From assembly GCA_016839555.1 (NCBI GenBank), contig JAEOUA010000010.1, forward strand, positions 160,001 through 224,000: 64,000 bases of DNA. The letters run 5' to 3'. A model generated the notes under the pieces. That model saw only the letters and a list, made by a program, of their open reading frames with translations, did no database searches and had not been told where the DNA came from. Positions 33,859 through 64,000 of this stretch are shown one piece after another. The DNA comes from Promethearchaeota archaeon (GTDB lineage: Archaea > Asgardarchaeota > Lokiarchaeia > Sigyniarchaeales > SOKP01). Each line of letters starts with the position of its first letter. The stretch's first letter is position 1. A program made the translations under genes and the position numbers.

Positions 33859-34788
33859 TTGGCAGATGTTAATTATAATTTTCTTCTATCATTAATTATC
33901 ATTATAATTGGTTTTATTTTAAAATATTTTAACATCATTAAAGAGAAAAACGGAAAAATAATTGCAAAACTAGTATTCAACATCACATTACCAGCTATTA
34001 TTTTTCGAACTATTTATACGATTATTATTACTCCTCAATTGTTTTTATTAACTATTATACCCATTTTTTATGCATTTTTTATATTGGGAATCTCATATAT
34101 ACTTTTTCGTAAAAAAGACCAAAATATAAAAGGATTATTATTTATGTGTGTTTTAGGATTTAATGTTGTACATTTGGCTTTTCCCCTTGTCGAAGGCATC
34201 TGGGGAAAAGAAGGATTAAAATATATAGCTATGTTTGATATCGGAAATGGATTTGTAATATTCCTTCTAAGTTATTTGGTTGGATCTATATTTTCACCAA
34301 AAAATAATTTACTCCATCAAAAGCAATTAATGAAAAATAGTTTGAAAAAAGTTTTAACTTCCGGGCCGTTAATAGCTTATTTAATCGCTATACCGATAAA
34401 TATCTTTGGTATTATTATTCCTATCTTTATAATTGATATAATTGATAAATTTGCAGATGCAAATTCTGCTTTAACATTATTATTATTGGGGATATTTTTG
34501 AATTTTAAGTTTGAAAAAGATCAATGGAAAAAAATTCTTTCAGTTTTAGGAATTCGTTATTTTTTAGGTTTATCGGTGGGATTATTTCTTTTTTTAATCC
34601 TGCCTTTTAATTTATTATATCGTGGGATTTTAACTATTGCATTAATATTACCTATTGGATTGGCAGTGATTCCTTTCACTGTAGAATTCGAATATAATGA
34701 AAAACTTGCTGGCACAATGGCAAATATTTCGATAATTATTTCTTTTATATTAATGTGGCTATTAATCTTGATTCTTGGTTTTGGTTGA
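33859..34788 (+). CDS. AEC (auxin efflux carrier/malate permease) family transporter
   Basis: LVFNITLPAIIF, AFPLVEGIWG, LTLLLLG; about 10 TM. Confidence 0.85.
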   Translation: MADVNYNFLLSLIIIIIGFILKYFNIIKEKNGKIIAKLVFNITLPAIIFRTIYTIIITPQLFLLTIIPIFYAFFILGISYILFRKKDQNIKGLLFMCVLGFNVVHLAFPLVEGIWGKEGLKYIAMFDIGNGFVIFLLSYLVGSIFSPKNNLLHQKQLMKNSLKKVLTSGPLIAYLIAIPINIFGIIIPIFIIDIIDKFADANSALTLLLLGIFLNFKFEKDQWKKILSVLGIRYFLGLSVGLFLFLILPFNLLYRGILTIALILPIGLAVIPFTVEFEYNEKLAGTMANISIIISFILMWLLILILGFG

Positions 34789-61898: not shown

Positions 61899-62933
61899 TT
61901 ATAAAATCATTGTCCATCCAAATTCATCGAGTAAATCTAATTTTTGTATACCAGTTAAGATCTTGTAAATTTTTTCAGTAATAGGGCCTGGTATGTTGTT
62001 ATTATATGTCTTTGTTCTTTTTTCATAAGTTATTGAACCAATCGGCGTAATCACCGCTGCTGTTCCTGTACAAAAGAGTTCCGCGCAATTATCTCCAAAT
62101 AATTCTTTATATGAAATATCTCTTTGTTCCGTTGTGATGCCAAGTTTGCGTTCTGCTATTTTTAATACAGAGTCAACCGTAATTCCTTCAAGAATGGTGC
62201 CATCGAAACGTGGGGTAACAAGTTTGTTATCAATTATCGCGCAAAAATTTGCTGCTCCCACCTCTGTTATATATTCCTTATAAACAGCATCAAGATAAAT
62301 TATTTGGTCGTAGCCTCTTTTCTTTCCCTCAAGTGCTGGTCTCATGGTACGCGAATAATTAGAACATGTTTTTGTAGAACCGGTCCCCCCCGGACTTGCT
62401 CGAGTATATTTGTTTGAAATTAATAGATTCACTGTATTAAATCCCTCGGGAAAATAAGGTCCAACTGGAGAACAAAACACTAAAAAGATGTATTCTTTTG
62501 CGGGTGCAATTCCCAGCACTGGACCACTTCCGATTAATAATGGACGAATATATAGCGATCCTCCGCTTTCATATGGCGGTATAAAATCCTTATTTGCAAT
62601 AACCACCTTTTTGACTGCATCTAAAAATCTCTGTTTATCATAGGGGGGCATCACAAGCCTTTTTGCACTTTTTTCGAACCTCTCTGCATTTTTCATGGGT
62701 CGAAATAGACTAATTCTCCTATCCTTTGATTTTAATGCTTTTAATCCTTCAAAAACACCTTGACCATAGTTAAGTATACATGCTGCAGGAGATAGTTCTA
62801 TTGAATTAAATGGAATTAATTCACCGTCATCCCACTTTCCATCTTTATATCTGGACAAAAACATCCAATCCGTTTCATAAAAATCAAATTTTAGATTATT
62901 AAAATCTATCATATTTCTTTTTGTTGCTTGCAT
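61899..62933 (-). CDS. ilvE: Branched-chain amino acid aminotransferase (class IV PLP)
   Basis: LNYGQGVFEGLKA, SLYIRP, TKTCSNY (PLP Lys), EVGAAN, ILEGIT, GTAAVITP. Confidence 0.93.
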   Translation of the reverse strand: MQATKRNMIDFNNLKFDFYETDWMFLSRYKDGKWDDGELIPFNSIELSPAACILNYGQGVFEGLKALKSKDRRISLFRPMKNAERFEKSAKRLVMPPYDKQRFLDAVKKVVIANKDFIPPYESGGSLYIRPLLIGSGPVLGIAPAKEYIFLVFCSPVGPYFPEGFNTVNLLISNKYTRASPGGTGSTKTCSNYSRTMRPALEGKKRGYDQIIYLDAVYKEYITEVGAANFCAIIDNKLVTPRFDGTILEGITVDSVLKIAERKLGITTEQRDISYKELFGDNCAELFCTGTAAVITPIGSITYEKRTKTYNNNIPGPITEKIYKILTGIQKLDLLDEFGWTMIL

Positions 62934-63066
62934 TTTTTTTTCACGTGTGTTTGTTTTTTTATTATATAGACCTTAGCAAGCAAGCGCTTATTACCCTGAC
63001 CTTATTGATTATGAATTTTAAACACATACAGCAAGATATCAATATTTTTTAACAAATTTAGTAATC

Positions 63067-63090
63067 AAAAAGAGACAAGGAAAGCTATCT
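63067..63090 (-). terminator. Putative attenuator hairpin plus U-tract after the leader ORF
   Basis: mRNA AGAUAG-CUUUCC-UUGUCU-CUUUUU (6-bp stem with two G-U pairs, weak). Confidence 0.45.
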
Positions 63091-63094
63091 TGCT

Positions 63095-63196
63095 TTATAA
63101 TACTAATACAGCTGCGGCAATTGCGATAGCCATAGCTAAGGCTACATAATTATTTTGAACTTTTTCCGCATTATGATTAGTATTACATAAGGTCAT
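63095..63196 (-). CDS. 33-aa leader/small ORF upstream of ilvE (MTLCNTNHNAEKVQNNYVALAMAIAIAAAVLVL)
   Basis: ATG 63196 to TAA 63095; last 16 codons are 7 Ala, 3 Val, 3 Leu, 2 Ile, 1 Met; TTTAAATA at about -30 to -23. Confidence 0.65.
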   Translation of the reverse strand: MTLCNTNHNAEKVQNNYVALAMAIAIAAAVLVL

Positions 63197-63479
63197 TGTA
63201 ATAGTTTATTTAAACTAATATTTAAAATATATGGTTTTCATTAGGGGGAATTGTAGTGGGAATTATCTTATAAAGTGTATTATCACTCTAATTAATAGAA
63301 ATCTTTTTAATTCGAGAATTTAATGGCTTTTAAAGCAATAAGAAATTTTAATTAGCATTTAACCATCATAAGATCCCTTAAAGTCTTCGAAATTACGAGT
63401 CTATCCTAAAAAACATTAATAATAAATATTCATAAAAACTTTAAAAAATATTAATAAAAAAAAAATTTTTTTATTTAAA

Positions 63480-64000
63480 ATGAGGGCTATAAAAAAAAGA
63501 AATAAGATTCTCTCCATATTAATTGTTAGTATTTTTCTAATCATTTTTTCAGCAATTAATATGGGAATAGATTTTAATACGCCTCTTAAAAACTCTGAAA
63601 CAACCATTCTGTACCAAAAAAATCCAATACTCGAACCTTCTTCAGTTACATATAATTGGGGCTCTATAGAATTAATCTCTACGGGTAGCGTTAATGATTC
63701 CAGAGATCCAGAGATTATATCTGACAGTTCAGGAAATTTGTATGTTGTCTGGGATGATGGTAATGCTTCGGATCCAAATGATAGGGATGTATTTTTTAAA
63801 TTGTGGAATAAAACAACTAGTAATTGGGAGAATAATGAGACAGTTTCAGAAGATTACAATTTAATATCTGCTAATCCTGATATAGCTTTAATCGATAAAA
63901 CTGCCTTTGTAGTATGGCAAAATATGGGAGATGATATGAATTCTTATGATATATTACGGAGTATCCGAAATCCTGGCGGAAGTTGGGGCAGTTATAAGAA
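63480..64000 (+). CDS. Secreted/surface BNR-sialidase-like beta-propeller repeat protein, partial (runs off window)
   Basis: MRAIKKRNK plus hydrophobic signal; repeats SRDPEIISDSSGNLYVVWDD and SANPDIALIDKTAFVVWQN; several NxS/T sites. Confidence 0.75.
   Translation, partial: MRAIKKRNKILSILIVSIFLIIFSAINMGIDFNTPLKNSETTILYQKNPILEPSSVTYNWGSIELISTGSVNDSRDPEIISDSSGNLYVVWDDGNASDPNDRDVFFKLWNKTTSNWENNETVSEDYNLISANPDIALIDKTAFVVWQNMGDDMNSYDILRSIRNPGGSWGSYK

Follow-up and report, generated by a model that had tools for sequence, protein, structure and literature searches.

The window analysed here, that is, the whole stretch of DNA under study, comprises 64,000 nucleotides of a Promethearchaeota archaeon (contig JAEOUA010000010.1, positions 160,001 to 224,000), and coordinates given without a contig refer to it. 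Near its far end lies ilvE, a gene for a branched-chain amino acid aminotransferase, preceded on the same strand by a short open reading frame (ORF) that ends in a run of Ala, Ile, Leu and Val codons. We describe here the leader that carries this ORF, a candidate ribosome-mediated attenuator, and the family of related elements to which it belongs. The features at the locus are the following.

62933-61899, minus strand: ilvE paralog A, branched-chain amino acid aminotransferase (Pfam PF01063; NCBIfam NF009897), the proposed regulated gene
63196-63095, minus strand: leader-peptide ORF of 33 codons plus stop, MTLCNTNHNAEKVQNNYVALAMAIAIAAAVLVL, read in the sequence
63226-63219, minus strand: TATA-like box TTTAAATA, read directly and conserved in an alignment of nine loci
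63145-63098, minus strand: candidate sensing-codon run VALAMAIAIAAAVLVL, the C-terminal end of the ORF
62970-62953, minus strand: TATA-like string TCTATATAATAAAAAAAC, about 30 nt before the ilvE ATG
62944-62941, minus strand: Shine-Dalgarno (SD)-like GUGA, 7 nt before the ilvE ATG

The product of ilvE paralog A is a class IV enzyme that scores 405.8 bits against NF009897 (cutoff 307). The genome has two ilvE paralogs, and paralog B, on contig 12, has no leader of the paralog A kind upstream. The initial annotation of this DNA had reported a 33-codon ORF 161 nt before ilvE, a TATA-like box ahead of its ATG and a CUUUUU run behind it. All three are in place: the ORF at 63196-63095 on the minus strand, separated from the ilvE ATG (62933) by a gap of 161 nt (63094-62934, minus strand); the box at 63226-63219, with a spacing that is conserved in relatives; and the CUUUUU at 63072-63067, in a U tract that is conserved in the leaders. 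Twenty-two nucleotides lie between TTTAAATA and the leader ATG, and the centre of the box is about 27 nt upstream of this ATG. Given the usual archaeal TATA spacing, the start site would fall 0-3 nt from the leader AUG. The leader transcript is thus probably leaderless or nearly so, with the ORF start at or within 3 nt of the 5' end. The SD-like GUGA or GAGGU before ilvE is kept in relatives, which implies a leadered ilvE message. As for the peptide, 15 of the last 16 codons of the window ORF specify Ala, Ile, Leu or Val.

We found that this arrangement recurs in other genomes. Relatives that belong to several genera, and whose IlvE proteins are only 60-80% identical, have a same-strand ORF of 26-37 codons 130-330 nt upstream of the start codon of the orthologous ilvE. 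In at least 17 relatives, this gene is preceded by all three features, ORF, TATA spacing and U run, a recurrence that is far beyond chance. Conservation of the ORF upstream of ilvE, on which the initial annotation had made its proposal depend, is therefore borne out. The ORFs begin M-[IT]-[SL]-x-N... and have an Ala/Ile/Val/Leu-rich tail that ends with the codons GUA-UUA-stop. At the ORF, the conserved alignment blocks are the TATA box, the start TAATGAYC and the ORF end GTAGTATTATAA. Past the stop codon they are NCAAGATAGCTTTTCCT, which follows it directly, a GACTTTTTCTT tract and ATCTTGN about 50 nt further, and then come two AGGTCA boxes and the SD-like GTGA/GAGGT before ilvE. The peptide itself behaves otherwise. 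A protein search with the 33-aa sequence found one relative only, the nearest one (E = 0.019), and by this comparison the peptide sequence is poorly conserved, RNA features and composition being conserved instead. Two other searches added little. A degenerate DNA pattern with 2 mismatches, run on 154 genomes, returned matches that equalled the reversed-pattern control and were noise, and an IlvE-based locus search of genome and metagenome collections returned mostly Bacteroidaceae and two useful loci only.

These comparisons bear on the simplest alternative, an ORF that arose by chance in the AT-rich region between two divergent genes, with ilvE transcribed from a promoter of its own at 62953-62970. 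This was our initial reading of the locus, and it was dropped on the comparative data. It could draw on TCTATATAATAAAAA, which lies about 30 nt before the ilvE ATG, and on the local fold of the window leader (141 nt), which is not unusual (z = -1.69). However, conservation covers both the ORF and its flanks, an SD-like motif precedes ilvE, and the ilvE-proximal TATA-like string at 62953-62970 is not conserved in the relatives in the alignment of nine loci. The same result speaks against the possibility, raised in the initial annotation, that ilvE has its own start downstream of the leader. We give the chance-ORF explanation practically no credence.

The leader belongs to a larger family of elements. 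A first covariance model (R1), built from ten ilvE leaders, matched in 57 of 135 genomes of the window's Promethearchaeota family. The model was rebuilt on 60 matches (R2), and in a class-wide sample R2 detected the element in 113 of 126 genomes of this family, in all 13 genera and in 1-4 copies each, and in none of 24 genomes from six other families. The matches number about 190, a count that overstates independence, as the elements share descent and the independent units are rather the approximately five classes of downstream gene. We fetched 140 elements, of which 139 have an ORF running from the conserved AUG for 20-40 codons, in 15 different lengths. The other frames are closed: frames +1 and +2 average 4.7 and 2.1 stops, respectively, and frame +1 is open in none. 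Taken as a proxy for translation, this pattern argues that the leader ORF is under selection to stay in frame and is not a chance frame. In addition, about 100 of the 139 family members have an 8-nt TATA-like box upstream of the ATG, at a distance of 22-26 nt.

The window's genome holds a second member of the family outside the window, already among the matches of R1, on contig 7 at 34258-34409 on the minus strand (L140:3759-3910:-). This leader encodes the Val-rich MISNNITFNRKALSVVVVLEVVL, which is followed by a long version of H-II, the stop-codon hairpin described below, and by an SD motif (GGAGGU). Downstream of it lies a 45-aa acidic ORF ending ...LPAECFINYEEIAW, on which a class I aminotransferase gene (LL-DAP/Asp type) converges.

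We then compared the peptide tails with the downstream genes. We took the last 10 residues of each leader peptide as its tail, and the composition by class of downstream gene is as follows.

leuS leaders, n = 41: tail 58% Leu
Leaders of a gene with FrhB_N/FrhB_C, 4Fe-4S and TrmB domains, n = 14: tail 46% Ile
Acyl-CoA dehydrogenase leaders, n = 3, two with an ETF subunit gene adjacent: tail about 55-60% Val
Leaders before small acidic ORFs (45-68 aa), n = 53: tail 37% Val, 33% Leu
ilvE leaders, n = 17: tail 42% Ala, 24% Val, 16% Leu, 10% Ile

On these compositions, the amino acid that prevails in the tail changes with the downstream gene, and within the family the match is clearest for leuS. 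About 40 leaders with Leu-rich tails (..DLLAVLLL[SL]) precede an archaeal-type leuS (TIGR00395, 778 bits against a cutoff of 648; loci L160, L161, L172, L178, L186 and many among L194-L254), and three more precede a bacterial-type leuS (TIGR00396, 731 and 752 bits against 548; L188, L196 and L227). Ile-rich leaders (..SLSIIIVAVLII) stand before a protein of 474-485 aa with FrhB_N/FrhB_C and 4Fe-4S domains and a TrmB helix-turn-helix (L173, L181, L184, L185, L190-L192, L197, L198, L203, L204, L209, L221, L226 and L236). Val-rich leaders precede acyl-CoA dehydrogenase genes in L147, L149 and L237, with ETF subunit genes adjoining in L147 and L149. The small acidic ORFs found behind leaders of the Val/Leu type (L129-L139, L141, L143, L145, L146, L148, L155-L158, L175-L183 and others) contain the motif [FW]x[IL]P[AG]E, and many of them have IAW or W at the C-terminus. 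The same class I aminotransferase gene is frequently found converging on them. A Pfam scan of two of them, of 45 and 68 aa, gave no match. Further downstream genes are an ABC exporter pair (L142) and a pyridoxal-dependent decarboxylase (L144).

Short ORFs with cognate runs also stand before other amino acid genes of the window's genome. An Ile-rich one on contig 1 (99308-99406, plus strand) lies 116 nt before cimA, encoding citramalate synthase (TIGR00977, 666 bits against 450). A Leu-rich one (…ILNLLLLL) on contig 12 (133951-134055, minus strand) lies 101 nt before leuA, encoding 2-isopropylmalate synthase (572 bits against 517), and a Trp-rich one (W-P-W-R-W) on contig 5 (557981-558043, minus strand) lies 133 nt before the TrpB-like gene trpB2 (640 bits against 366). 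The three are unrelated to the family of the ilvE leader. Altogether, the notion that the C-terminal run reports the supply of Ala-, Val-, Leu- and Ile-tRNA is well supported by the sequence comparisons.

The window peptide, with its polar N-terminus and its hydrophobic C-terminus of 16 residues, might also suggest an independent gene, placed upstream of ilvE by coincidence, for a membrane peptide of the tail-anchored type or for a peptide resembling a toxin. Against this stands the tail itself. Tails measure 8-16 residues, too short for a membrane span, and in many relatives they are interrupted by D, E, K, N or R. Sequences such as AADAAAAAVVL, ATAAVEVL and AIDAVAVVAL, with charged residues inside, disfavour a membrane helix. 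The peptide sequence is moreover poorly conserved, the composition of its tail matches the downstream gene, and the same RNA elements always follow the ORF. We consider an independent peptide gene very improbable.

We found three conserved helices in the leader RNA. H-0 joins the AUG to a downstream box, H-I joins N-terminal to C-terminal codons, and H-II is a hairpin at the stop codon that encloses the U tract. In the window, their parts are the following.

63195-63189, minus strand: 5' arm of H-0, UGACCUU, made of the UG of the start codon plus 5 nt
63003-62997, minus strand: box 1, AAGGUCA, 3' arm of H-0 (alignment, RNAalifold and covariation)
62974-62969, minus strand: box 2, AAGGUC, a second copy of the box, which pairs with the 5' end in the minimum free energy (MFE) fold of the window leader
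63187-63176, minus strand: 5' arm of H-I, UGUAAUACUAAU, codons 4-7, present in the MFE fold
63107-63096, minus strand: 3' arm of H-I, AUUAGUAUUAUA, the final four codons plus two bases of the stop codon, the first and second
63093-63086, minus strand: 5' arm of H-II, GCAAGAUA, starting 1 nt after the stop codon
63038-63031, minus strand: 3' arm of H-II, UAUCUUGC (alignment and RNAalifold)
63074-63066, minus strand: pyrimidine/U tract CUCUUUUUG (U5 at 63071-63067), candidate oligo-U/FttA termination site in the loop of H-II

Two of the three helices, H-II and H-0, covary above the level of shuffles. The partner segment of H-II lies 40-90 nt downstream of the stop codon, 95% of the cells are paired in an alignment of 60 sequences, and all 8 of its 8 pairs have double changes. 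Its covariation score is 0.536 against 0.144 in shuffles (0/500), with a maximum of 0.096 for slid arms. In leaders of the Val/Leu and Leu types, H-II has 13-16 bp of quite different sequences. H-0, predicted by RNAalifold on 16 ilvE leaders, has 98% of its cells paired and 2 pairs with double changes, and its covariation is 0.379 against 0.259 in shuffles (0/500). Cognate duplexes are also more stable than non-cognate ones, both for H-II (-18.2 vs -12.7 kcal/mol) and for H-0 (-9.4 vs -7.9 kcal/mol). The evidence for H-I is of another kind. In a register-free test its duplexes reach -15.1 kcal/mol when cognate and -11.4 kcal/mol when not, and the cognate duplex is better in 45 of 50 leaders. 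There is also compensation specific to subfamilies, with ACUAC:GUAGU in one and ACUGC:GCAGU in another. The 3' arm of H-I ends in the stop codon, and H-II has the start of its 5' arm at a position between -3 and +3 nt relative to this codon in all of the 108 non-redundant leaders compared (108 of 108).

A CUUGC-rich stretch, AAGCGCUUGCUUGC (62990-62976, minus strand), lies between the two AGGUCA boxes. Within it, UUGCUUGC is complementary to GCAAGCAA at codons 2-4 of ilvE, and a similar arrangement can be seen by eye in some relatives.

So much conserved structure might suggest that the leader is an untranslated cis-acting RNA, for instance a riboswitch or a leader that binds a protein or tRNA. 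The open frame and the codon runs would then be side effects of the helices. The three helices form a compact three-way arrangement, the 3' arm of H-I dictates the codons GUA and UUA, and the AUG is itself paired in H-0. T-box RNAs control aminoacyl-tRNA synthetase (aaRS) and branched-chain amino acid genes in Firmicutes, as is generally known. Nevertheless, the leader frame is open in 139 of the 140 elements, with 15 lengths among them, stops abound in the other frames, and the AUG stands where the TATA spacing places the 5' end. Tails vary among Leu, Ile, Val and Ala beyond what the helix arms need, matching the downstream gene, and there is no match to an Rfam family, T-box or other. We regard an untranslated RNA as improbable.

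The initial annotation had proposed a specific switch of three mutually exclusive pairings: 1:2 between GUAGCC (63145-63140) and GGCUAU, 2:3 between GGCUAUC (63131-63125) and GAUAGCU (63089-63083), and 3:4 between AGAUAG (63090-63085) and UUGUCU (63078-63073), all on the minus strand. The segments do occur at these positions. Their pairings, on the other hand, are not conserved, and RNAalifold predicts none of them. Of 15 ilvE leaders, 11 either lack the 3:4 hairpin or have it at an insignificant level. For 2:3, the window and its nearest relatives give a strong pairing (-11.6 kcal/mol in the window), and over the ilvE class the cognate segments pair no better than non-cognate ones (-8.55 vs -8.17 kcal/mol, p = 0.33). 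What survives of the attenuator idea is a leaderless peptide sensor matched to its gene, which the comparison supports, and not the particular switch. The terminator hairpin proposed as its output fares no better, as no conserved hairpin directly precedes the U tract and a terminator of the bacterial type is not shown. The other output named in the initial annotation, termination with the help of FttA (aCPSF1) once the ribosome has left, is plausible.

The U tract is the most conserved non-helical feature of the leaders. A run of five or more T within 45 nt after the leader stop was found in 121 of 139 leaders (87%), with a median start at +25. This compares with 18-24% in the background and with 47-51% at real gene ends of the window genome. 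In archaea, polymerases need no hairpin to terminate at oligo(dT) tracts, and the termination factor FttA has a preference for nascent RNA rich in U and presumably requires that transcription be uncoupled from translation (PMC13681488). Conservation of the U tract, hairpin-free termination at oligo(dT) and the preference of FttA for uncoupled, U-rich RNA together favour premature termination as the output of the leader. Since H-I and H-II meet at the stop codon, a ribosome with one of the last four codons or the stop in its A site must cover the base of both. With the active site of the polymerase on the U tract, such a ribosome would trail it by about 30-40 nt.

In the mechanism that we propose, transcription would start at or next to the AUG, and a ribosome would load on the nascent 5' end. 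With ample cognate charged tRNAs, this ribosome would reach the stop codon and leave. H-I and H-II could then fold, and the uncoupled polymerase would terminate on reaching the U tract some 25 nt beyond the stop codon, or shortly thereafter, through intrinsic oligo-U termination, FttA or both, so that little ilvE message would be made. When a cognate tRNA is scarce, the ribosome would stall on the last codons and cover the stop codon and the 5' arm of H-II. Placed directly behind the polymerase at the U tract, the stalled ribosome would block folding or access of the factor, with read-through into ilvE. Later, once box 1 has been made, H-0 would close the leader AUG, which would limit sensing to the nascent transcript and its pioneer ribosome. 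That stalling would be the ON state is suggested by analogy with leuS, leuA and cimA. Overall, we think it rather likely that the conserved 5' leader of about 260 nt before ilvE acts as a ribosome-mediated amino acid sensor, that is, an attenuator, as its conserved features suggest. Within this reading, we infer the translation of the ORF, the direction of the response and the step at which the output is exerted. The sequencing runs listed for the window are DNA runs from marine sediment, possibly of the source sample, with no RNA run among them.

That last step is where the nearest alternative departs from ours. A translated upstream ORF in a structured leader could control ilvE post-transcriptionally if the ribosome remodelled H-I, H-II and H-0 with consequences for translation initiation, or for cleavage and decay. 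A precedent exists in mycobacteria, where ribosomes stalled on a codon run in a leaderless small ORF (sORF) block a structure that sequesters the ribosome-binding site (RBS) (bioRxiv 10.1101/834739). In the archaeal leaders, such control would fit with the inability of H-II to serve as terminator hairpin for a U tract that it encloses, with a moderately covarying alternative partner that S3, the stretch just after the stop codon that forms the 5' arm of H-II, has further downstream, and with the complementarity, noted by eye in some leaders, of the CUUGC-rich stretch to the ilvE start region. Our modelling argues otherwise. By partition function over 125 leaders, the RBS is mostly open, with an unpaired probability of 0.59 when the leader is free and of 0.54-0.56 with a ribosome mask on the tail. 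There is no cognate pairing signal between the RBS and the H-II loop (p = 0.85) or S4, the 3' arm of H-II (p = 0.63). Post-transcriptional control also leaves the conserved U tract 25 nt past the stop unexplained. We judge it unlikely, and it is still the strongest of the alternatives.

Several observations weigh against the leader as a termination-based attenuator, besides the shared descent of the elements. Some concern the output. As the U tract lies in the loop of H-II, this helix is no classical terminator hairpin for it. No conserved hairpin stands directly before the tract, and the local one of the window is absent in most relatives. Because archaeal termination does not need a hairpin (PMC13681488), the missing terminator lowers the claim to membership in the bacterial class and not the functional analogy. 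Comparison of the leaders did not clearly reveal a conserved, mutually exclusive alternative structure: the signal for pairing between the middle of the ORF and S3 is borderline when all leaders are taken (p = 0.04) and not significant when the ilvE class is taken by itself (p = 0.33), and for the other partner that S3 could have downstream the support is only moderate (-7.65 vs -6.06 kcal/mol). With the U tract in the loop, no conserved competing pair of helices found and no modelled RBS switch, a post-transcriptional output keeps some weight. Column-wise covariation of H-I is not significant, because its arms are conserved and slip by 3 nt.

Other observations concern the sensor. Part of the Val and Leu of the tail is forced by the 3' arm of H-I (GUA/UUA codons), and the residue that prevails in the ilvE tails, Ala, is no product of the aminotransferase. 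Most Val/Leu-type leaders have one or two small acidic ORFs (45-68 aa) downstream, and we know of no link between the FrhB/TrmB-like protein and isoleucine. In a subgroup from one genus (L210, L214, L229, L231, L239, L246, L247 and L250), an ORF of about 30 codons lies in another frame (...PVCIRSIIKRE), has no hydrophobic run and stops inside the region that is the 5' arm of H-II elsewhere. These leaders are either degenerate or work differently. In the window genome, the string at 62953-62970 could be a secondary promoter of ilvE, or its own.

In its widest form, our proposal is that this one Promethearchaeota family has a ribosome-directed regulon, in which some 190 homologous leaderless leader peptides with C-terminal Leu, Ile, Val or Ala runs would each gate their own gene by keeping a ribosome close to the polymerase at a U tract and thereby blocking oligo-U/FttA termination. 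Together with the cimA, leuA and trpB2 leaders, they would represent ribosome-mediated transcription attenuation in archaea. We put this forward tentatively, with somewhat more doubt than confidence. The gated genes would be leuS of both types, ilvE, the acyl-CoA dehydrogenase and ETF genes, the FrhB/TrmB-like regulator and the small ORFs.

As to the surroundings of the leader in the window, a divergent gene (63480-63998, plus strand) starts 284 nt upstream of the leader ATG, and its ORF continues past the end of the window. The encoded protein carries a hydrophobic segment at its N-terminus and seems to be secreted or anchored in a membrane.

In bacteria, the coupling of transcription to translation has leader-peptide attenuation as one of its textbook outcomes. 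The element described here would work like the known leader-peptide systems, yet it is a member of no described family. An Rfam cmscan of 62500-63700 at E ≤ 10 gave four chance-level matches, none to a leader family (Leu_leader, Thr_leader, Trp_leader) or to the T-box family. Full-text literature searches returned no report of leader-peptide attenuation in archaea, an absence in the searched literature and not a proof. The closest systems are the bacterial attenuators of branched-chain amino acid genes, such as ilvL-ilvGMEDA, ivbL-ilvBN, leuL-leuABCD and Corynebacterium ilvBNC (PMC11857589). They share with the archaeal leaders a short ORF with a run of relevant codons, a U tract and helices that a ribosome disturbs, and the logic that we propose, in which a stall at hungry codons leads to read-through, is alike. 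The differences are substantial. The archaeal leaders operate without sigma-70 polymerase, Rho or hairpin-dependent intrinsic termination. They are probably leaderless and have no SD for the leader ORF, their sensing run is C-terminal and abuts the stop codon, and their U tract lies in a hairpin loop instead of following a terminator stem. No conserved terminator/antiterminator pair was found, and there is no similarity in sequence or in Rfam. E. coli pheM-pheST resembles the approximately 40 archaeal Leu-rich leuS leaders in the control of a synthetase gene by cognate codons. The window member, in contrast, precedes an aminotransferase gene and not a synthetase gene, and the mechanism differs as it does for the branched-chain attenuators.

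The polycysteine sORFs of mycobacteria, the 'Cys ribulon' (Canestrari et al., bioRxiv 10.1101/834739), are alike in having a codon run as sensor and in sharing one design across many loci, which makes a ribosome-directed regulon of them. Their sORF is a leaderless first cistron, as that of the archaeal leaders probably is. They act on translation through a freed RBS, whereas the archaeal leaders have no modelled RBS opening and a U tract that suggests termination. The amino acid and the domain of life also differ. The T-box of Firmicutes is a functional analogue, being a cis leader that couples tRNA charging to aaRS and branched-chain amino acid genes. It binds uncharged tRNA and is untranslated, unlike the archaeal element, with its conserved frame and no Rfam match. 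Finally, Rho-dependent polarity and attenuation in bacteria and FttA (aCPSF1) with Spt4/5 in archaea (PMC13681488) illustrate how a factor that needs uncoupled, U-rich RNA could terminate after the leader stop and be blocked by an adjacent ribosome. We infer the link of FttA to the leader. A regulated FttA-dependent attenuator is not described in the review PMC13681488.

The result of this study is the phenomenon across loci and not the single ilvE locus. If our reading is true, the coupling of transcription and translation would be used for regulation in Asgard archaea, the closest prokaryotic relatives of eukaryotes, and attenuation would operate there with a polymerase that resembles the eukaryotic one and a termination factor of the CPSF73 type. 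The leaders would then offer a natural substrate on which to study the ribosome together with the archaeal polymerase and FttA at an oligo-U site, and the regulation of amino acid genes in the mostly uncultured Asgard archaea would become predictable from sequence. In this sense, the leaders also connect the supply of isoleucine or valine with genes of unassigned role, such as the small acidic ORFs and the gene of the FrhB/TrmB-like protein.

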